The notes under the pieces are model-generated. The model was not told the origin of the DNA and ran no database searches. It worked only from the letters and a program-made list of their open reading frames with translations. 64,000 bases of DNA from Microcoleus sp. (GTDB taxonomy: Bacteria > Cyanobacteriota > Cyanobacteriia > Cyanobacteriales > Microcoleaceae), in assembly GCA_042408215.1 (NCBI GenBank), contig JAYFMW010000026.1, positions 1 through 64,000 on the forward strand, in the 5' to 3' direction. Made by a program: the position numbers and the translations under genes. Shown in pieces: positions 18,576-29,413 of the stretch (the first letter of the stretch is position 1; the number at the start of each line of letters is the position of its first letter).

Positions 18576-19187
18576 TTACAACCTTGAACCCAGATCGATC
18601 GCCAGTTTAAAGCTATCAGAAAAATCCTGCGGAGGCACACCCACCATCAAAGCCGAATCATCTCGCAAATGGATTTCTACATCACGTTTCCGCTCTACAA
18701 ACAAACTCGCTTCCGACAAATGGCGGGGACTCAAAAAATGCACAACTTGATTAGCAGAACCCCGCCAACCTTTATTATCATTCAATTCTGCCACATACTG
18801 CCCATCAATCAGAACATCAATCAAAGCCAAAACTCGATCGATAGCAGCATCAGATTTCCCTTGTAACTGTGCCAGAGTAAAACCCGTAAAGCACATAATA
18901 GATATGTCGCGGTGTTCGCGGAGATAGGCAAATAAAACACCAAGCGCCGCCGCTTGCAACATCGGTTCCCCGCCGGAAACAGTCAGCCCTTCCGTACCGG
19001 AAACAGATAAAATATAGTCAGCCAATTGTAGCGGTTCAACTAAAGTCGCTTGCTGTTGAGGAATCCATTCCGGGGAAACGCAATGGCGGCAATTAAAACA
19101 ACATCCTTGCACCCAAATCACAAAGCGTTGATTCGGGCCAAGAGTGCGAGTAGCAGGACAAATTTCAGCAACATTGAGTAAAGTCAT
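18576..19187 (-). CDS. Radical SAM protein, NrdG/activase-like (single 4Fe-4S cluster)
   Basis: GPNQRFVIWVQGCCFNCRHC (CxxxCxxC), GLTVSGGEPMLQ, DVLIDGQY, WRGSANQ. Confidence 0.88.
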   Translation of the reverse strand: MTLLNVAEICPATRTLGPNQRFVIWVQGCCFNCRHCVSPEWIPQQQATLVEPLQLADYILSVSGTEGLTVSGGEPMLQAAALGVLFAYLREHRDISIMCFTGFTLAQLQGKSDAAIDRVLALIDVLIDGQYVAELNDNKGWRGSANQVVHFLSPRHLSEASLFVERKRDVEIHLRDDSALMVGVPPQDFSDSFKLAIDLGSRL

Positions 19188-19189
19188 AG

Positions 19190-20254
19190 CTAAAAAACCA
19201 ACGTATTTTTGGGTTGAGCTTCTTCGTGTTTTCTGCGAGCATTCCCTAACTCTCCGTCAATTTCTGCTAATATTTGCTGTACATTTCTCAGCAGAGAATC
19301 TACTTTTTGGCTATCTATTGGCAGCCGATTTCCTAATCCCAGATTTGATAGATAGTGAGTATTCAAAGCTGTCAGAATTTCCGCCGTTGCTGTTTGATAT
19401 TTCTGGAAGTCTTCCCCAGCTTTTTGTAATTGCTGCTGGGCTTCACCGTAAGATTTCTGCTGCTGTGCGAGCTCCGTGCGCTGTTGTTCCAGAGTGGCTA
19501 ATTCCTGCGTTAAAGCTGCGGATAAACGCTCTCGCTGTGACTGGGTTAAAATTATCAGTTCAGCAACAGTATCTTCTGTGCTGGTTTCTAGACGATTCTG
19601 CCGGGATTGCCAATAATTGATTTCTTCTTTGAGCGTAGATTGCTGTCGTTGCATGGCGCTAATTTGGTCATCTAATTCGGCTTTTTGTTGTTGGAGCGAT
19701 CGCAGTTTTTCCTTTTCCGGTTCTAACGTCGCCTTGTGTGTCGCAATCTCTGCCCGCAATTTGTCTAAATTGGTGCCTTCGAGTTCAGTTTGAATCTCTT
19801 GCAGTTGTCTAGCTTTCTCTCTTAAACTTTGCAATTCAGAGTTAGATTGCTGCAATTTTTCTTCCTGTTGCAGCAAGTTAGCTGCTGACTGAAGTAGTTT
19901 AGATTTATCGTTGGCTATTTGGTTGATGGCTGAAGTGCGATCGCCTATCTTTTCTTTTAGTGTAGTCGGTATCGGTAAAGTTGTCAAGTGGGGGAGCCAA
20001 GAATTGAGTATTTCTAACTGGGTGTTGAGAGTTTTGGAAAGTGCGATCGCCCACGCTTCCAAAGTTTCTGGATCTGCACCAGCCAACTGTCTCAAAACTT
20101 CTGGATAAAAAGTTGACTCCCAGAGGCTCATTCCTGCTTGTACTAATTCCAAAGGCAGTTTAATAGTTTCAAATTCTCTGAAGTTTTGACTTTTTTGTAT
20201 TTGCTGCAATACAATTGTTATTGCTTCTATATCATGTTGCTGATTTGGCTGCAT
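19190..20254 (-). CDS. Long coiled-coil protein of unknown function
   Basis: Q/E/L-rich heptads; ATG 20254 preceded by GGAGG; stop 2 nt before the radical SAM start. Confidence 0.8.
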   Translation of the reverse strand: MQPNQQHDIEAITIVLQQIQKSQNFREFETIKLPLELVQAGMSLWESTFYPEVLRQLAGADPETLEAWAIALSKTLNTQLEILNSWLPHLTTLPIPTTLKEKIGDRTSAINQIANDKSKLLQSAANLLQQEEKLQQSNSELQSLREKARQLQEIQTELEGTNLDKLRAEIATHKATLEPEKEKLRSLQQQKAELDDQISAMQRQQSTLKEEINYWQSRQNRLETSTEDTVAELIILTQSQRERLSAALTQELATLEQQRTELAQQQKSYGEAQQQLQKAGEDFQKYQTATAEILTALNTHYLSNLGLGNRLPIDSQKVDSLLRNVQQILAEIDGELGNARRKHEEAQPKNTLVF

Positions 20255-20282
20255 AAACACCTCCAATTATGGTATCATCAGA

Positions 20283-21884
20283 TTAGTCTTCATCAAAGAA
20301 AACATAACCGGGAAACATTTTAGCAAGAATATTTCCTAGCTCATACTCGACGCACTTTTTACTGCTTACTTCCTCGATCGCCAAATAAGCAATTTGCGAT
20401 CTATCCACTTTCATCCCAGCTCGATATCTTGCCCCAGATTGGTGATTTGGTACTTCAATATTTTGCGGCATCAATTCTTGGTGTCTTTTGCCTTTAGAAT
20501 TAATTTGTACCCACAGACTAACAAACATTTGTGACTCAGCAGTTTGATATGATTCCGTACAAAAATTAGGCTTTGCTAAAGCATCTAAATTAGAACCACC
20601 TTCGATTAAGGTAATTTCCTTTTGCACCTTTTGATCGGCAATGATACTTCTTAAACCAATACCAAGGGTATGAATATATTTCTCCGTTGGATCGACCAAA
20701 CCGTTAGCAATCAGACAAGCCCCGTAGGAAATAGCATAGGCACTATTAGTAATATTAAATGTTTGGTCAATGCGGGGGTCATTTTTCACAATTCCTAAAG
20801 CGTCAGTAATTGCTTTTTGAACTAGGAGAAACTGACAGAAACCACCTACCAGAAAAATGCGATCTATTGCCAATCCTTGTTCCTGAGTGTGGGCAATAAT
20901 TTTGTTAATTACCTTTTTGATGCCTTGGGAAATAGGGGCAAAAGCTTCGTCAACTTCTCCCAGCGTTACCGCGTAGCCACTGAATTTATAAGCTTCTTTT
21001 TGGGCTGTGTCATCGGGATCATCTAGATAGTTGGTTAGTTTTTTAGTGGCGTTGACATGACTGCCTATTTTTACACTTTCAAAGTCTTTGAGCAAGCTAG
21101 TAAAATCAGCAGTATTTTCATCTAAAGATTTACCATGTTTTTTAGTATAAGCTTGTTGGACAACGCGCCGATCGAAAGCGACTCCTGCTGATTCTAAACC
21201 TTTGTCACCTTGTCCGTGAAAGTAGAGAACTTCCACTTTCTTGTCCCCATAAATCCGACACAGGCTAACATCAAATGTACCGCCTCCCATGTCGCAAACA
21301 AGTATGTTACCGCTGAAAGGTTCGGTTCCCTTTGCCTTAGCACGCCGTTGAGTTTCCCAGGTATAATAAGCAGCAGCGGCCACAGGTTCGCTAACGAGTT
21401 GAATTAGCTGTTTTTCTAGTCCTAAATCTTTTTTAATTAATTCTTGCAGGCGCTCTCTACCTAAATTACGGATATCCCGTTGCCAAATTTCGGGGACTGA
21501 CACAACAATGCTGGCAATTTCCCCTTTTTCCCTGCTAAAACTGTAGTCATTCTCATTAGAAATTAGCAGTTCCCGCAGGTAATCAATGGTAACACTAATC
21601 GGAGTGCGATCGCCTGAAAAATATTGACCAAATTCAGACTCCTTTAGCGGTAATCGCATTTTGAAATTGCCGTAGGTTTCCACAGAGGAATCGTGGGCGG
21701 CGGCGGTACGGGCGGGAGTGCCAATTTCGGTGTCACCATCTGAATGATAGGCGATGAAAGAAGGGATGTATTTCTCTCCGTTTGGTGGCGGATACGGAAA
21801 TGCTTCGAGGTCTCCGTTGGGGGTGAGATAGGAGATGATCGAGTTGGTTGTACCGAAGTCTAGACCGATTTTGTAAGTTGACAT
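20283..21884 (-). CDS. Atypical Hsp70-family ATPase
   Basis: IGLDFGTTNS, VSVP, VSEPVAAA, DMGGGTFDVS, LVGG; short divergent C-terminus without a canonical DnaK lid. Confidence 0.88.
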   Translation of the reverse strand: MSTYKIGLDFGTTNSIISYLTPNGDLEAFPYPPPNGEKYIPSFIAYHSDGDTEIGTPARTAAAHDSSVETYGNFKMRLPLKESEFGQYFSGDRTPISVTIDYLRELLISNENDYSFSREKGEIASIVVSVPEIWQRDIRNLGRERLQELIKKDLGLEKQLIQLVSEPVAAAAYYTWETQRRAKAKGTEPFSGNILVCDMGGGTFDVSLCRIYGDKKVEVLYFHGQGDKGLESAGVAFDRRVVQQAYTKKHGKSLDENTADFTSLLKDFESVKIGSHVNATKKLTNYLDDPDDTAQKEAYKFSGYAVTLGEVDEAFAPISQGIKKVINKIIAHTQEQGLAIDRIFLVGGFCQFLLVQKAITDALGIVKNDPRIDQTFNITNSAYAISYGACLIANGLVDPTEKYIHTLGIGLRSIIADQKVQKEITLIEGGSNLDALAKPNFCTESYQTAESQMFVSLWVQINSKGKRHQELMPQNIEVPNHQSGARYRAGMKVDRSQIAYLAIEEVSSKKCVEYELGNILAKMFPGYVFFDED

Positions 21885-22022
21885 GATTGGTATTTTAATT
21901 AGCTGAAAACTCGCTTTTATAGTACCGTCGGCAGAAACCGAGTTTTTTTACGAAAACATTGCACCATAGCCTTTAATATCAGTAAAAACCCGGTTTCTTG
22001 AGTATTCAACAAATAACAATAA

Positions 22023-22679
22023 CTATTCCGGTTCAATTCCCAAGGCCCGCAACTGGTCAGCTAATCGCTCTGCACGTTGTTGTGCTTGCAATGCCGCTTC
22101 TTCCGGCGTGGGAACTAACAGCCCATCCAGGGTAAAATAGCGCAATTTCCCCTCATAAATTCCCAGATATAATTCTAGTATATCACTCCACAATCTACCA
22201 GATTCATTGGCAACAATGGCTTGATACTCTTGACCGATTAAACGAAAACCAGCAAATTCCAAATCTTCAGGATCGAACCAAAAATATTCGGGAGTTCTAA
22301 ACCGATTTTGATACAAGATTTTTTTCTCGTTTCGGTCAACTTTGGCGGTGGATTCAGAGAGTAATTCTATAATTATATCAGGGTACTTACCATCTTCTTG
22401 CCAAACCACCCAAGACCGACGCGGACGTTTTTGCGTATTCCTGATTAAGAAAAAATCCGGGCCGCGAAAATCCCGATTCCGCAATTGTTGCTCGCTGTAA
22501 TAAACTGTGAGGTTAGCCCCAATAAAAAAGTCATTTTTATTGCGCCACAGCCATTCTAAACAAGCCACTAATAAAGATAATTGTACATAATGTAAAGAAC
22601 TTTCCATTTCTGGTTCATCACTTTCAATTTTACTAGCATCTGGCATCAGTTTTGCCAGTTCTAGGGCTGTAAACACCAT
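22023..22679 (-). CDS. Uma2 family (PD-(D/E)xK) endonuclease
   Basis: ESDEPEMESSLH, FRGPDFF, PDIIIELLSESTAKVDR, PEYFWFDP. Confidence 0.92.
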   Translation of the reverse strand: MVFTALELAKLMPDASKIESDEPEMESSLHYVQLSLLVACLEWLWRNKNDFFIGANLTVYYSEQQLRNRDFRGPDFFLIRNTQKRPRRSWVVWQEDGKYPDIIIELLSESTAKVDRNEKKILYQNRFRTPEYFWFDPEDLEFAGFRLIGQEYQAIVANESGRLWSDILELYLGIYEGKLRYFTLDGLLVPTPEEAALQAQQRAERLADQLRALGIEPE

Positions 22680-22682
22680 CGC

Positions 22683-25220
22683 TTAATCCTCCCAATCTGG
22701 TATATCTGCTAACGCAAACCTCCTCATCGCCTCCCCAATCAAATTATCTCGCACCATGCGACTTTTGAGGCGATTCACCATTTTTTCATAAAAATTCCGC
22801 ACACTGCGTCCATTCCCAAAATTCCGCCCTCTATTTTGGTACGCAGCCATCAAAACTGCTTGTAAGCGCGCCGAGACATCGGGAGGACAAATCCACCCAT
22901 CCCCCTGACACATACTGAGGAAAATTTGGTGCAATTCTTCACCATTATAATCGGGAAACTCGATTTTGTAAGCAATCCGCGAAGCCATCCCGGAATTTGC
23001 ATCCATAAACTGTTCCATCTCGCGGGAATATCCAGCTAGAATTACTATTAAGCGATCGCGCTGATTCTCCATCATCGGTACTATAGTATCAATCGCTTCC
23101 TTCCCAAAATCAATCCCCGACTCGCTGCGACTGAGGGCGTAAGCTTCATCAATAAACAATACACCATCCAAAGCAGACTCGATCGCCTCAGCAGTCTTTT
23201 GTGCAGTTTCTCCCACAACACGCCCTACCAAACTGCGTCTGTCTGCTTCCACAAATTGCCCTTTCCGCAACAAACCCAAAGCCTTAAAAATCCGCCCCAC
23301 CAGTCGCGCGATCGTAGTTTTTCCCGTACCAGGATTCCCCGTAAACAGCATATGCCGCGTTTCGGTACTATTTTTAGTTAACATCCCAGCTTCCCGCAGC
23401 CGTTGATTAGCAATTTGGCTATTGACAATTTCTCCAATCGCTGCTTTCACAGAATGCAAACCAATTGTCCTGTCTAATTCCTGCAACAACTCCTGTAAAA
23501 TCGCCTCATCTTTTCTCGATTCTTGTCGGTATTCAGCAGGTAAATCCGCAACTTGAAAAGGTTCCAAAAGCCGATCGCACTTTTGTTCAATCACCCGCTG
23601 ACTACGCAACTCATCCATCAAATTAAACAAATTTTCCACCAAGCCCGCATTCCCAAAAGTGCGATCGCGCCTTTGATACAATTCACCAAACAAATTCATC
23701 AAAGCCACCTCCAAATCCGGCGTAATCGAACACCGCACCCGCGCCACCCGCTGTTGAAAAATCGCCAACAACTCAGCCGGATTATAATCTTCAAACACAA
23801 TTTCAGTCAAGCGGCGCTGCAAACCCGGATTTGCCGCCACAAATTCCGCCATTTCATCAGGATATCCCGCCACAATTACCGCCAGTCGGTGTCTGTCATC
23901 CTCCATCCGTTTTACCAGCACATCCACTGCTTCTTTCCCAAACTGATCCCCTTGAGTTAAGGTATAAGCTTCATCAATAAATAACACTCCATCCAGGGCT
24001 GCATCAATAGCTTCATTAGTCTTAATCGCAGTTTGTCCCACATATCCTGCCACTAAATCTTGCCTTCCTACCTCCTTCAAATGTCCCCGCTTCAACAATC
24101 CCAAATCGCGATAAATTTCCCCAATTAATCTCGCCACAGTAGTTTTCCCAGTACCAGGATTACCCTTAAAAATTACGTGCAGCCGAATCGGTTCAGTGCT
24201 AATACCTTGTTGCAGCCTTTCTCGCTCAATTTCCAACACTTGCATCCGTCGCCGAATCGTATTTTTAACAGCAGCAAGCCCAGTCATTTCTGCCAATCTT
24301 TCTAAAGCAGGTTTAGTATTCATATCAGCAGATAACCATCCCAATCTTTTCGCTTCTGTCAAGGAAATTTCGCGAGCAGTTTCAAAGCGATCGCACCAAT
24401 GTTTCAGCGGCTTATTTTCCGCAGCTATCCAACTGCATAATTTATCCGCCCCATTCCAGTCTACCACCTTGCGGTGTTCCAGTCGAAAATAATCCCGCAA
24501 GGCTCTAATTTCTCCCGCATCAGGCGCACTCAAACGCACGAAATTAACCGCGCGACTGTTAGAATCATCGCCATTGTTTGCCAGATTTGCTAGAAATGTG
24601 AATCCAATCCGTTGACAAAACTGCTGTAAAGTAGTACGATTTTCATGGTGAAAAATGAAGATACAAAGATTGCGATTGTTGGGCGGGAAACGCGACCAAT
24701 CTACAATCCGTCCAAACAGTTCGCGGCGGTTGTCAAAATTAGCCAAATCTTCAGCATTAGAAAAGACGATCGCCGATTGTTGCGAACTCTCCCGCATCGC
24801 GGTTTCAAAAATCGGCAGGATTTGAGTATCTTGGAGCCTGGGGCTTGAATTGGGTGCTGCGGGGGTAGGTGTAGCGGGGGTATTTGTCTGGGCTGATTGC
24901 TTCCCTAACAATCCGCCCTTGTTCCCTAAAGCACCTCTGAATCGCATCGGCTGTGAAGATGCGGAACTAGCGGCAGATTTGGGTTGTAAACGCGATCGCG
25001 CGCGCGATTTCTCATCCAGAAAATACAGTTTTTTAGTACCAGAATAAAATAGAATTCGCTGATAGCCTTCGCAGCGCAAATATTCATGTAAAACCTGTTC
25101 AATATTTCGCAACAATAAATCCTGACTGCAAAACGTATCGCTCGTATTCGCCCCGTAGAGGACTAAAAAGCGATCGCCCGACTGTAAATTCAATCCTGAT
25201 GTCACCCTTTCAACTGTCAT
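22683..25220 (-). CDS. Tandem AAA+ ATPase, CbbX/SpoVK/EccA-like
   Basis: Two modules, each with GNPGTGKTT, GVLFIDEAY and R.FGN motifs, after a ~300-aa N-terminal domain. Confidence 0.92.
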   Translation of the reverse strand: MTVERVTSGLNLQSGDRFLVLYGANTSDTFCSQDLLLRNIEQVLHEYLRCEGYQRILFYSGTKKLYFLDEKSRARSRLQPKSAASSASSQPMRFRGALGNKGGLLGKQSAQTNTPATPTPAAPNSSPRLQDTQILPIFETAMRESSQQSAIVFSNAEDLANFDNRRELFGRIVDWSRFPPNNRNLCIFIFHHENRTTLQQFCQRIGFTFLANLANNGDDSNSRAVNFVRLSAPDAGEIRALRDYFRLEHRKVVDWNGADKLCSWIAAENKPLKHWCDRFETAREISLTEAKRLGWLSADMNTKPALERLAEMTGLAAVKNTIRRRMQVLEIERERLQQGISTEPIRLHVIFKGNPGTGKTTVARLIGEIYRDLGLLKRGHLKEVGRQDLVAGYVGQTAIKTNEAIDAALDGVLFIDEAYTLTQGDQFGKEAVDVLVKRMEDDRHRLAVIVAGYPDEMAEFVAANPGLQRRLTEIVFEDYNPAELLAIFQQRVARVRCSITPDLEVALMNLFGELYQRRDRTFGNAGLVENLFNLMDELRSQRVIEQKCDRLLEPFQVADLPAEYRQESRKDEAILQELLQELDRTIGLHSVKAAIGEIVNSQIANQRLREAGMLTKNSTETRHMLFTGNPGTGKTTIARLVGRIFKALGLLRKGQFVEADRRSLVGRVVGETAQKTAEAIESALDGVLFIDEAYALSRSESGIDFGKEAIDTIVPMMENQRDRLIVILAGYSREMEQFMDANSGMASRIAYKIEFPDYNGEELHQIFLSMCQGDGWICPPDVSARLQAVLMAAYQNRGRNFGNGRSVRNFYEKMVNRLKSRMVRDNLIGEAMRRFALADIPDWED

Positions 25221-25290
25221 TGATTTTGAATTTTAGATTTGAAAGCCCGTCATTATTTTTGCTTTTTACATCTTACACCCAAATCAAAAT

Positions 25291-25657
25291 CTCGTGCGGA
25301 TTCAAGAAACCGGGTTTTTTCCTGAATTTTCGCACCCCATCCTAAACCTTGATAAAAACCCGGTTTCTCACCCCTCGCGTAGACTCAAGAAACCTAGACT
25401 CTAGAAACCGGGTTTTTTCCTGATTTTTCGCCCCCCATCCTAAACCTTGATAAAAACCCGGTTTCTCGCCCCTCGCGTAGACTCAAGAAACCTAGACTCA
25501 AGAAACCGGGTTTTTGCCTGAATTTTTTGCACCCCATCCTAAACCTTGATAAAAACCCGGTTTCTCGCCTCGCGTAGATTCAAGAAACCGGGTTTTTTCC
25601 TGAATTTTCGCACCCCATCCTAAACCTTGATAAAAACCCGGTTTCTCGCCTCTCGCG
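25291..25657. repeat. Tandem array (4 units) of the AAGAAACCGGGTTTT...AAAACCCGGTTTCT hairpin repeat
   Basis: Near-identical units with CCCCATCCTAAACCTTGAT loop. Confidence 0.9.
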
Positions 25658-25759
25658 TAAACTATTTAAATAATAAATTAGGAAATAAAAACCCCGCGCT
25701 AGGGCGCGACAGAAAAAGAGAAGAGAGAATAAAGAGCAAAAACTCAAGAGAGCAAAGGG

Positions 25760-27457
25760 CTAGGGAAACCTCGCGGCAACACAAGCAACCCGAAAACCGA
25801 AGCCGTAGTAGCGGAACGCCGATCGATCCCCGAGGCGAAAGGCCGAACGGCAGCGCCACGGATAGTGGCTCCATGAACCACCGCGCAAGAGCCGGGAATG
25901 ATTATCATTATCATTCAGCTTCTGCCTAAGATTTATTAAATGATTTTTATCCAAATCATCCCAAGCACTTCCATCTACGGGAGCGCCATTGTAATTTTCA
26001 TGCCAAACATCGCTGCACCACTCCCAAACATTGCCGTGCATATCGGATAACCCGAAAGCATTAGCAATTTTTAAACTGCCAACAGGGGTGGTTTTTTGGC
26101 GATACTCGCCCTTGGGGCCCTCACCGTAAGTATAATTACCGTTGTAATTTACAAACTTAGAAGAAATAGTTTCTCCAAAATGAAAAGGAGTAGTTGTCCC
26201 AGCGCGGCAGGCATATTCCCACTCAGCCTCGCTGGGGAGACGGTAGGGAAGTTTTGTATACTCTGTCAGTCGTGCACAAAACTCTACTGCATCATACCAT
26301 GAAATCCTTTCAACTGGCAAGTCTTTTCCCTTAAAATTGGCAGGATTGGCTTCGATGTCTCGCACCACCTTCGGCAAACCAGCCACCGCCGCCCACTGAG
26401 CCTGCGTTACCGGAAATCTCCCCAAATAAAAAGGCGAAACCGTAACTTGGTGCTGGGGACTTTCCGAATCTCTCCTTTCCAGTTCAGTATCGGGAGAACC
26501 CATCCAAAACTTGCCACCAGGAATCGCCACCATTTCCAACATTATACCACCGGGCAATGCTTGAATCAAGGCCTGGGCAGTTCCATTTTGGCGGCTATTT
26601 TCCCTTCCTTGTCTATCAACAGTCACCACCGGAAACGAAAACTCCCGGTGATTTCCTACTACTAACTCCCGCTGCACCAGTTGTTGCTCCAATCCCACTT
26701 GCAATCGAGAATTTTCTGTATGAGCTTTTGCCAATTGCGCGGCTAATTCATCCCGTTCCCGTGCTATGCTTTGCCTGCGAGCATTTTCCGTCTGAGACTG
26801 TGACAATTGAGTAGCCAAGTCTGATTGCAAGCGAGCAATTTCTGTATGAGCTGCTGCAAGTTGGGTTCCTAATTCCGATTGTAGACGAGAATTTTCCGTC
26901 TTAGCTGCTGCAAGTTGTGCGACTAATACCAAATGTTCTTGTTTCAGCTTGTGCAATTCTGCATCAGATTGTGCCAATTGCACAAATAATTCAGCCCGTT
27001 CTCGTGTCACCTGTTCCAATCGAGAAATCCCTAGATTAGCCTGTGCAAGTTGCGCGACTAATTCAGCGCGTTCTCCTGCGAGCTTAGCTATTTCTGCTTG
27101 CAGTGCCGGTGTTTCTTGTTCCTTTTGAGTTAGTTGAGCAGTAACTTGTTCTAATTTAGCTTGAAGTTGCCGGCGCAGACTTCGGCTTTTAGCTAATTGT
27201 TCCTGGACTTGAGTCAACTGTTCGGTTAACTGGGAACTAAGATCGGCTTTTTCTTGGTTGAGTCGCTCTTGAGTAGCGATAAAACTCGACCAAATTCGCC
27301 TCGCACCAGCTAATTGGGATTGTTGATTTTGGACAAAAACATCTGGCAATTCTCCCAACACATACACATTATCCTGGCTCAAATCCCAACCGCAGCTAGA
27401 GCAAAAATTCACTGTTGCTTCGACATATTCTGTTTGACAAATCGGGCAATTCGACAC
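25760..27457 (-). CDS. Zn-ribbon + coiled-coil + FGE-sulfatase (C-type-lectin-fold) protein; probable DGR target
   Basis: CPIC..CSSC; repeated ERAEL.AQLA; IPGGKFWMGS, PVERISWYDA, RLPSEAEWEYACRAG, DMHGNVWEWC, RGGSW...GFRV; GTG start after AGGAGG. Confidence 0.9.
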   Translation of the reverse strand: MSNCPICQTEYVEATVNFCSSCGWDLSQDNVYVLGELPDVFVQNQQSQLAGARRIWSSFIATQERLNQEKADLSSQLTEQLTQVQEQLAKSRSLRRQLQAKLEQVTAQLTQKEQETPALQAEIAKLAGERAELVAQLAQANLGISRLEQVTRERAELFVQLAQSDAELHKLKQEHLVLVAQLAAAKTENSRLQSELGTQLAAAHTEIARLQSDLATQLSQSQTENARRQSIARERDELAAQLAKAHTENSRLQVGLEQQLVQRELVVGNHREFSFPVVTVDRQGRENSRQNGTAQALIQALPGGIMLEMVAIPGGKFWMGSPDTELERRDSESPQHQVTVSPFYLGRFPVTQAQWAAVAGLPKVVRDIEANPANFKGKDLPVERISWYDAVEFCARLTEYTKLPYRLPSEAEWEYACRAGTTTPFHFGETISSKFVNYNGNYTYGEGPKGEYRQKTTPVGSLKIANAFGLSDMHGNVWEWCSDVWHENYNGAPVDGSAWDDLDKNHLINLRQKLNDNDNHSRLLRGGSWSHYPWRCRSAFRLGDRSAFRYYGFGFRVACVAARFP

Positions 27458-27539
27458 GCATTTCCTCCTTGATGGCGAGATGATTCACTAAATTGCGTAA
27501 CAATATTATAGTGCAAAATAAACAAAGGAAGTCTGAGTT

Positions 27540-27900
27540 CTCGTGCGGATTCAAGAAACCGGGTTTTTTCCTGAATTTTTGCACTCCATCCTAGACTTGG
27601 ATAAAAACCCGGTTTCTGAGCTCTCGCGTAGATTCAAGAAACCGGGTTTTTCCTGATTTTTCGGACTCCATCCTAGACTTGGATAAAAACCCGGTTTCTG
27701 AGCTCTCGCGTAGATTCAAGAAACCGGGTTTTTTCCTGAATTTTCGCACTCCATCCTAGACTTGGATAAAAACCCGGTTTCTGAGCTCTCGTGCGGATTC
27801 AAGAAACCGGGTTTTTTCCTGAATTTTCGCACTCCATCCTAGACTTGGATAAAAACCCGGTTTCTCGCCACTCGCGTAGATTCAAAAAACCGGGTTTTTT
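27540..27900. repeat. Tandem array (~4.5 units) of the same hairpin repeat
   Basis: Units with CTCCATCCTAGACTTGGAT loop; abuts the stop codon of the upstream gene. Confidence 0.9.
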
Positions 27901-29413
27901 ACTGATTTTTTGATACACTAGGTGATGGAGGCGGTGCAACTTGACGGCGCTTTACTTCCTCCAAATTCTGATATTCCTGCTGTGCTTTCTGATTGCACAC
28001 CGGTTCACCATCCCCCTGCACTCCTTCCTCCTCCAAAGCATTAAAAATAGCCTTCGCATTTTGCTGCGTCGCTGTTTCATCCACCAGGGTTTGACTGAAG
28101 GTGTTAATCGAAACTGAGTTCGCCCCAAACTCTTTTTCTGGACTGATGACTGTCACCACTTCATCGCCAGCAATATTTTTCACTTTCACCACAAAAGCAT
28201 TGCGCTGGTCATCACCTTCGTAGACAGCATCGGACTCGGAATTAACTAAAGTATATCCCAAAGATTCCAGAGCACTTACAACTTTGTCGGCAATTTCTAC
28301 TCGCAATTGGGAACCCAAGATTGTGAGTTTTGCCTGTTCGACAATCTCGCCTAAAATGGGCTGCAAAGCAATGATTTTTTCGCCCAATTCCTGCACTTGC
28401 TCGGTAGTAAGTTTCGATTCCCCAGCTTTGAGTTGCGATTCCAACTGATTCAACTGCTGTTCGTACTCGCTCAAGCGACCATTAACCCAATAATCTACTT
28501 CTAATTTAAACTTCTGGGCCTCATCGCCTTCCCCCATTTCAATTTCGCATTCTTTGTTAGCCTGGACTTCGACAATTAAACTTTTCAAATCTTCCCAAGC
28601 AGCATTATAAAGCAACAGCCATTCTTGCTCCTTCTGTTCTAATTGGATTCGCAAATCAGCTAAATCTAAATAGGTTTGCTGGGTAGTAGCAATGGCCGCT
28701 TCTGTCAAGCCAGCTTGGATATTGCTCTGTGCCATTTCTAAGCCGCGGTGCAAATCTGCCAGTTTTCCCGGAGCAAAGCGTTGATGTTGGTAATCGCGAT
28801 TTATTTGTTCCCAAATTACTGCCACATCGGACAATAAATCTTCGGCAATTTTGGCTTTCCGCTGGGTTTCCTGTTCTAGATTATCAACAACTCGATCTAT
28901 TTGCACCTGTAAAACTTTCTGTCCCCGTTCTCGCGCTTGCTGTTCCTCCGCAATCAACTGGGTGAATTTCCTGTCTTGGCGATCGATCAAACCCGTGTAT
29001 TCCTGCCGCTGCTGGGCGGTAATTCGCAGATATTCGCCCCGCTGCTGCTCAAAACCTTGACGCTGGGCGGACTCCAAGCGGCTTGTTTCCTGCTGCAAAG
29101 CCTGCTGCTGGCGAGATTCGGCTTCGCGCACGGCGGTTTTAAAGTCCTGTCGCTGCTGTTGCAAGCGCTTTTGAGTATCTTGTTCTAAGCTGGCTATATT
29201 GCTTTTGAGGTTTTGGGTTTCTTGTTCCTGCTGTCTGGCGCGCTGTTCCAGGGGGGCCAAGCGCTGTTGAAACTCTTGCTGTGCTTGTTGTCGGACGGCA
29301 TTTAACCGTTCTGGTAAATCGTTCTGTACGGAGCGCAAACGGCTTTCCTGTTCGCGCAATCGTCGCAATTCTTGTTCTTCTACGCTGACATATCGAGATT
29401 TTACACCGCTCAT
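27899..29413 (-). CDS. Coiled-coil protein with small C-terminal alpha/beta domain; first gene of the cluster
   Basis: MSGVKSRYVSV start, ~370 aa Q/E/R-rich helix, then ALESLGY...VVTVISP domain. Confidence 0.8.
   Translation of the reverse strand: MSGVKSRYVSVEEQELRRLREQESRLRSVQNDLPERLNAVRQQAQQEFQQRLAPLEQRARQQEQETQNLKSNIASLEQDTQKRLQQQRQDFKTAVREAESRQQQALQQETSRLESAQRQGFEQQRGEYLRITAQQRQEYTGLIDRQDRKFTQLIAEEQQARERGQKVLQVQIDRVVDNLEQETQRKAKIAEDLLSDVAVIWEQINRDYQHQRFAPGKLADLHRGLEMAQSNIQAGLTEAAIATTQQTYLDLADLRIQLEQKEQEWLLLYNAAWEDLKSLIVEVQANKECEIEMGEGDEAQKFKLEVDYWVNGRLSEYEQQLNQLESQLKAGESKLTTEQVQELGEKIIALQPILGEIVEQAKLTILGSQLRVEIADKVVSALESLGYTLVNSESDAVYEGDDQRNAFVVKVKNIAGDEVVTVISPEKEFGANSVSINTFSQTLVDETATQQNAKAIFNALEEEGVQGDGEPVCNQKAQQEYQNLEEVKRRQVAPPPSPSVSKNQ

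Follow-up and report, generated by a model that had tools for sequence, protein, structure and literature searches.

A DGR-type variable region in a Microcoleus lectin-fold gene, with its cassette beside the same gene end in metagenomic relatives

Introduction

In a diversity-generating retroelement (DGR), a reverse transcriptase (RT) and Avd copy a template RNA, adenines are randomized, and the copy replaces the variable region (VR) of a target gene. The window analyzed here is a 64,000-nt stretch of contig JAYFMW010000026.1 from the Microcoleus sp. assembly GCA_042408215.1 (G000; 30 contigs, 99.98% complete, zero N). A preliminary description claimed that the 3' end of an FGE/CLec gene in this window is the VR of a remote DGR target and that the window contains no RT, Avd or template repeat; the absence of all three from the window is confirmed. 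The locus raises the questions of whether this gene end is a genuine VR and, if so, where the machinery that wrote it resides.

Sequences compared

Orthologous loci came from Tychonema bourrellyi FEM_GT703 (L041), a metagenome (L145) and a MAG (L152), and were compared together with a 1,511-nt metagenome contig (L148). The sequencing runs X1, X3, X5, X6 and X7 were used in the form of assembled contigs, not of reads, and therefore reveal alleles but no rates; these contigs stem from four studies at most, and those of X3 leave the VR uncovered and were left out of the interpretation. The 90% protein cluster of the target has 16 members, 15 of them listed, and 12 of those 15 extend to the C-terminus. 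For gene context, 17 distinct related loci were compared, several of which are cut by contig ends, after one duplicate was dropped.

The target gene and its variable region

The features of the target gene and its 3' end are as follows.
25760..27457, minus strand: DGR target gene, an ORF of 565 aa with an N-terminal CxxC...CxxC zinc-ribbon-like motif, a long coiled coil and a C-terminal FGE-type CLec domain
25784..26536, minus strand: FGE/CLec domain, from profile match and AlphaFold2 model
25770..25895, minus strand: VR, as the extent of homology to the template repeat in metagenome contigs (the alignment covers 25774-25895 for X6 record 9 and 25773-25895 for X7 record 17, each showing 19 differences; identity to the 3' end of the presumed template extends as far as 25770)
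25801..25874, minus strand: mutagenized core of 14 variable codons, residues 530-553, with 23 variable sites among four orthologous DNAs (25874 varies too among alleles)
25770..25800, minus strand: invariant 3' stretch common to the target and the presumed template, putatively IMH-like in function; identical in four orthologues and shared as a 31-32-nt contig node in X5 and X7
about 25711..25759, minus strand: pyrimidine-rich spacer past the stop codon, present behind related VR ends too
25695..25708, minus strand: GC hairpin whose stem of 5 bp (in L041 and L148, of 7 bp) closes a 4-nt loop, and which also fits a terminator-like pattern
25660..25690, minus strand: junction at which the target runs into a repeat array here, but into avd and RT in L148 (similarity of L148 to G000 ends at 25683; L041, L145 and L152 share the cassette-free junction)

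PF03781 (FGE-sulfatase) matches residues 308-558 of the protein (E 8e-54), and the coiled coil gives weak SMC-like matches at residues 44-254. The label zinc-ribbon-like for the N-terminus derives from its cysteine motif; an Atlas search with this segment returned leads below 0.8 only, a zinc-ribbon lead scoring 0.78. The AlphaFold2 model of the FGE/CLec domain, built from 109 sequences, has a pLDDT of 93.9 (an earlier model from 17 sequences was poor, with a pLDDT of 53.5, and was discarded). Foldseek ranks the enzyme PvdO first and Treponema TvpA (2Y3C) third (E 7e-19, TM 0.71) as matches to this model, and the target's C-terminal region is also similar to TvpA in sequence (E 8e-16).

The codons quoted in the preliminary description are the last ones of the 565-aa ORF (minus strand, 25873-25787), and the positions it gave for the pyrimidine tract and hairpin are exact. 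The GC enrichment it reported is likewise borne out: GC content is 64% in 25770-25895, compared to 38% in the 126 bases upstream and 47% in the whole gene. Its argument that codons ending in C or T mark a DGR is correct as an observation (17 of 24 VR codons do so) but weak alone, as 50 of 500 upstream 24-codon windows of the target gene reach the same count; the decisive DGR signal of the segment is the comparison of orthologues. The hairpin folds with a z of -3.07, and 2 of 200 shuffles fold as well. L041 and L148 have a stem of 7 bp, compared to 5 bp in the window, in L145 and in L152, and the loop in the window does not match the GRNA consensus, which PMC3240598 gives for phage DGRs.

Variation among orthologues and populations

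Relative to the window, L041, L145 and L152 carry 16, 15 and 18 substitutions, respectively, in the 70 bases at 25801-25870, compared to 49, 67 and 62 in the 1,628 bases outside this segment (3-4%; Fisher p 2e-9, 4e-7 and 6e-10). By codon position (1/2/3), the changes inside fall 9/5/2, 8/7/0 and 10/7/1, and thus 46 of the 49 are at position 1 or 2; outside, third positions form the largest class. One L041 difference, at 25853, occupies a third codon position and is not explained by any adenine. Aligned with the template of G012, which is real and of the same genus but does not match, the VR is variable at 20 of 28 adenines versus 3 of 42 other positions (p 2e-8). The preliminary description had proposed looking for strain-level variation at these codons; the orthologues vary there, at 15-18 of 70 bases, and invariance was not seen.

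The pattern extends to proteins. The 12 cluster members with a C-terminus, among those listed, represent eight distinct VRs that vary at the same codons, and comparing seven full-length members with the window gives 10-13 differing residues among the 24 of the VR and 20-32 among the 541 elsewhere. All eight alleles, four of which were unused in deriving the pattern, are reachable through changes at the inferred adenine positions alone (about 26 sites, 10^14.6 possible peptides), a permissive test given that such codons reach many residues. The VR is identical within record groups (P0125 and P0128; P0122, P0123 and P0134; P0124 and P0129), and VRs are also shared between locus L012 of G014 and L041, and between locus L156 of G063 and L152. 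With three groups of distinct records each having one VR, alleles look stable once they are at cassette-free loci.

Two runs show variation at the population level. Contigs of X1 have no difference to the window over 26306-27568 and 25961-26233; in the VR stretch they have 12 differences, and the six displayed ones all fall on variable sites. X5 contains a pair of VR alleles, each 156 nt long and differing at 16 and 19 sites, respectively, next to one identical shared flank. Both X1 and X5 hold a loose contig end resembling template 3' flanks. We also considered a recombination tract around the VR and rejected it, because the 137-base difference-free run relative to L041 is ordinary; another part of the gene has such a run of about 210 bases.

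Paralogous CLec genes with this VR backbone and 3' stretch occur in two other genomes (L118:5101-6012 and L119:8231-9283), indicating that one template type serves several different targets. No Avd match was found in either of these genomes.

The cassette in relatives

L148 begins within the invariant 3' stretch, so that the gene upstream lies beyond the contig, and its first bases are the last codons of the target, 94% identical to G000 over 118 bases. These are followed by the 7-bp hairpin, an Avd (NF033474, over cut-off) and an RT truncated at the contig end, the DNA of which is about 70% identical to cyanobacterial DGR RTs. X6 record 9, a contig of 1,847 nt, matches 25700-25800, continues for 1,621 other bases and then has a second repeat that matches 25774-25895 with 19 differences; the spacing expected from L148 and the length of the G012 RT is 1,619 bases, and the middle of this contig would therefore encode avd and RT. 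The repeat in X7 record 17, a 917-nt contig, also has 19 differences. Ten of the 19 are displayed, and all ten, phased by contig depth, are the same in X6 and X7 and are adenine on the gene strand. The alleles predict that the 19 differences split 9/7/3 by kind, which the run tallies, mixing several contigs, allow. The ten displayed differences strongly indicate that this second repeat is the adenine-type template of the VR.

A connection of the cassette to a full-length target gene is indirect. In X6, the shared 3' stretch is where the cassette contig (depth 10.7) meets a single gene contig of 1,795 nt (depth 11.4), and the ENA entries P0131 and P0133 (pieces of the target) and P0137 (Avd) all list a 4,323-nt contig; both observations are consistent with physical linkage. 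When used as a DNA query, the L148 avd-RT segment found no matching cassette in 79 genomes of the genus and 401 of the order, the best identity being 68-73%.

The hypervariability of orthologues, the bias in codon position and the metagenomic occurrence of a matching avd-RT-template cassette together uphold the central claim of the preliminary description; 25770-25895 is almost certainly a genuine DGR variable region.

Search for the machinery in G000

A template repeat adjacent to an RT, which the preliminary description had suggested seeking by BLASTN, is absent from G000: BLASTN, an adenine-tolerant scan and a motif scan all failed to find a template in this genome. Apart from the locus itself, BLASTN and the adenine-tolerant scan matched ends of paralogous genes and, by chance, one other site. 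None of the four RTs in G000 is a DGR RT. Their best matches are group II intron RTs, they are 26-30% identical to the G012 DGR RT, and two score over the cut-off and two are truncated, so they were rejected as drivers. The same G012 query recovers DGR RTs with 65-100% identity in 10 of the 79 genus genomes. The known DGR templates of the genus (G012, G097, G017, G064, G063, G069 and G067) have at least 23 non-adenine mismatches over 136 bases and were likewise rejected. G063 has a DGR, but its template fails to match the VR (34 non-adenine mismatches), and G014 (92% complete) has no DGR RT or Avd. Pattern scans with a guessed template and with the presumed template flank gave no match in genome contigs and in 0 of the 79 genus genomes, and the invariant 3' stretch has no match in viral contigs.

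The claim that this is a remote target is therefore only partly sustained. The target does lack a cassette of its own here, yet in relatives the cassette adjoins the gene end, and G000 has no template or DGR RT elsewhere. The gene falls outside the term remote target as Wu et al. 2018 and Vallota-Eastman et al. 2020 use it, because no matching template occurs elsewhere in the G000 assembly.

G000 does contain remains of other DGRs. Its Avd is a lone 19-codon stub on contig C28, behind the decayed target end of another template type. This remnant cassette (G000:C28:148800-149060; L008:3820-4060, minus strand) consists of a target's last codons, a pyrimidine tract, a 6-bp hairpin and the 19 avd codons. 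It fits the G097/G012 template type, with 15 adenine and 5 other mismatches, and was for this reason rejected as the matching cassette. On C30, near 699299 (L175:15285-17261), the end of a kinase-CLec gene matches the template of G069, a DGR of another species, with 14 adenine and 2 other mismatches in 146 bases; on this match it is a second clean orphan target. Four further, more decayed VR-like CLec ends (G000:C30:689322-689962, C17:616565, C17:659002 and C3:313175) represent the template types G063/G069, G017 and G097; the one at C30:689322-689962 lies in a broken gene. Besides the VR studied here, the genome thus has six or more VR-like ends, belonging to three other template types, which makes about seven such gene ends and four template types altogether, and no DGR RT.

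The junction and cassette decay

The target gene is flanked on both sides by palindromic repeats.
25283..25680, no strand: palindromic repeat array downstream of the target, with units of about 80-100 nt
27532..27899, no strand: array of the same palindromic repeats upstream of the target

The core 15-mer of this repeat has 855 copies in G000. The window, L041, L145 and L152 have one cassette-free junction into the palindromic array and four different VRs, which suggests that new alleles arrived after the junction arose, unless the same deletion recurred.

Cassette decay is common in relatives: the G069 RT contains a stop, and the RT genes of G068 and G009 run into repeats, with no template found after either. 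Repeats similar to those of the window come after these truncated RTs. G146, from another genus, has an Avd and no DGR RT in its genome. In this other genus, the same cluster slot contains a zinc-ribbon/CLec gene whose VR type matches a distant target beside an avd gene (L217:4485-8817, G146:C94; L198:5784-7187); the G146 gene in this slot has no adjoining cassette.

The surrounding gene cluster

The target lies between the genes for a 504-aa coiled-coil protein and a tandem AAA+ ATPase, in a cluster with the following other members.
27899..29413, minus strand: 504-aa predicted coiled-coil protein, no family match; neighbor of the AAA+ gene in 14 of the 17 loci compared
22683..25220, minus strand: 845-aa tandem AAA+ ATPase of SpoVK/CbbX/EccA type (TIGR02881, 480 bits, cut-off 423)
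22023-22679, strand not given: Uma2-family gene between the AAA+ and Hsp70-like genes; also in L179 and L180, absent there in L041
20283..21884, minus strand: Hsp70-like protein, 533 aa (PF00012); in 10 of 17 related loci
19190..20266, minus strand: 358-aa coiled-coil protein
18576..19187, minus strand: NrdG-like radical SAM protein, 203 aa (PF13353; TIGR02491 below cut-off); in 10 of 17 related loci

The cluster at 18576-29413 is patchy in cyanobacteria, and some relatives add FHA-like domains. The AAA+ N-terminus occurs in 11 of 401 genomes of the phylum, G000 included. Homologues of the zinc ribbon are present in 10 of the 17 related loci; the zinc-ribbon N-terminus is joined to CLec in L177 and, in another genus, in L198 (G146), and other such N-termini are fused to repeats that by eye resemble WD40 or TPR, or stand alone. 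This arrangement suggests a conflict system in which the zinc-ribbon protein serves as the adaptor and its sensor domains can be swapped. By gene context, the target is the predicted variable sensor of the AAA+/Hsp70/radical-SAM cluster.

PADLOC identified no coherent system, with scattered partial AAA, coiled-coil and viperin-like matches in six proteins, and no MoxR or vWA family match was found among the scanned cluster proteins; L181 has a vWA-like gene nearby on the opposite strand. No description of a SpoVK/Hsp70/radical-SAM cluster was found in the literature searched, which mostly excludes subscription journals. PMC11090510, in its relevant passages, describes CoCoNuT extensions and not this cluster.

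Origin of the allele and alternative explanations

We favor, with a probability of roughly 0.7, the reading that the VR was written by a DGR whose cassette adjoins the same gene end in metagenomic kin and is missing from this assembly, the allele likely being an orphan that is frozen in the strain. In cassette-bearing kin, the copy that RT and Avd make of the template RNA would have random bases in place of about 26 adenines; it would take over the position of the VR at the invariant 3' stretch and hairpin, rewriting the 14 codons that end the lectin-fold domain, as the alleles show. Lineages without the cassette would keep whatever allele they hold. One junction and four VRs at four cassette-free loci make it likely that such loci occasionally gain new alleles, possibly by recombination with cassette-bearing kin or from a cassette elsewhere in the cell. 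The predicted sensor may dock to the cluster through its zinc-ribbon/coiled-coil N-terminus, as the gene context suggests. The preliminary description's hypervariable ligand-binding receptor with an adaptive-recognition character accordingly holds for the population, while the allele in this strain is probably frozen.

One observation that counts against a frozen orphan is X1, which equals G000 over about 1,500 bases of the gene, has 12 differences in the VR stretch and holds an apparent template 3' flank at similar depth; the G000 lineage may thus carry a cassette that the assembly missed. In that case the gene would be an active remote target, its VR rewritten in trans by a matching cassette in an assembly gap, on a plasmid or in an unbinned contig. 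The different VRs behind a common junction in the four cassette-free loci would fit such activity too, as would the division of G000 into 30 contigs, and trans activity has been inferred for Thiohalocapsa DGRs 4 and 5 (PMC10907252). Nevertheless, we regard this as unlikely, given that an assembly 99.98% complete and free of N contains no DGR RT, Avd beyond the stub or template, that none of the 79 genus genomes has a matching cassette (best DNA identity 68-73%), and that distinct records with identical alleles recur. The hairpin here is also 5 bp rather than 7 bp, and in BPP-1 shortening the stem by 2 bp markedly lowers homing (PMC3240598), although this phage system differs.

Two other explanations have far less in their favor. 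The cassette could be truly adjacent in the strain and have been collapsed out between repeats during assembly: palindromic arrays lie on both sides of the gene, and target and template share about 30 bases that break short-read graphs. A collapse at the shared stretch would, however, put the VR onto the template flank, and the window has the VR followed by its own stop and hairpin; the cassette-free junction moreover recurs in three other assemblies, making an artefact very improbable. Still harder to maintain is a history without any retroelement, in which the C-terminal loop of an FGE-family enzyme or binder was diversified by ordinary positive selection or recombination. PvdO, an enzyme, is the top fold match, ahead of TvpA in third place, and the C/T-ending pattern alone is common in the target gene, but variation is confined to template-adenine positions, an avd-RT pair comes after the same gene end in L148, and the second repeat, rich in adenine, is found at the distance predicted.

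Relationship to known systems

In cyanobacteria, CLec targets, remote variable proteins and dispersed paralogues have been described (PMC7517822; Vallota-Eastman et al. 2020), and removal of diversification components after variant selection has been proposed in the same paper; non-adjacent DGR targets are surveyed in PMC5758913. Like the targets in PMC7517822, the Microcoleus gene joins a CLec/FGE module at the C-terminus, with its 3' VR, to a different N-terminus, and has dispersed paralogues. In contrast to the remote targets there, for which the template is in the same genome, G000 has no template, the cassette adjoins the gene end in kin, and the N-terminus is a zinc ribbon and coiled coil. 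Microcoleus and Tychonema are absent from the main text of PMC7517822, the supplementary tables of which may list relatives.

The VMAP/iSTAND MoxR-vWA ternary conflict systems (PMC7159879; Kaur et al. 2020) resemble this locus in having a hypervariable C-terminal FGS domain and an NTPase-centered cluster in a filamentous cyanobacterium. The ATPase here is instead of tandem SpoVK/CbbX type and is accompanied by Hsp70-like and NrdG-like radical-SAM genes, with no MoxR/vWA match; SpoVK and CbbX do not appear in the text of PMC7159879, and its source data may list relatives. DGR loci 3 and 7 of Thiohalocapsa PB-PSB1 (Dore et al. 2024, PMC10907252) are similar in that the reference locus is incomplete and population variants have an intact RT and template. 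The likeness extends to MITE-like repeats at degraded DGR parts and to targets proposed as antigen sensors. PB-PSB1 differs in keeping several complete DGRs, compared to none in G000, and in its host cluster. TvpA of Treponema denticola (PDB 2Y3C) shares the fold and C-terminal sequence similarity; TvpA, however, is described as an outer-membrane lipoprotein (PMC10907252), and the target, with a cysteine motif and coiled coil at its start, is presumably a cytoplasmic protein.

Implications

Published work already covers DGR targets, remote targets and decayed cassettes in cyanobacteria, and a VR alone is unsurprising. A tentative and rather doubtful extension of our reading is that hypermutation is outsourced: a minority of mat-forming cyanobacterial lineages would carry the cassette, and cassette-free ones would import mutated lectin tips by recombination, arming an undescribed coiled-coil/SpoVK-AAA+/Hsp70-like/radical-SAM conflict system that has zinc-ribbon adaptors with swappable sensors. 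RT-centered surveys would miss G000 entirely despite its roughly seven VR-like gene ends. The same gene end occurs with and without the cassette in close kin, and the cassette-free copies are still varied, providing a tractable system for the spread of hypermutated alleles once their generator is gone. With DGR diversification tied to it, the AAA+/Hsp70/radical-SAM cluster offers a further candidate case for asking what cellular DGR targets sense.
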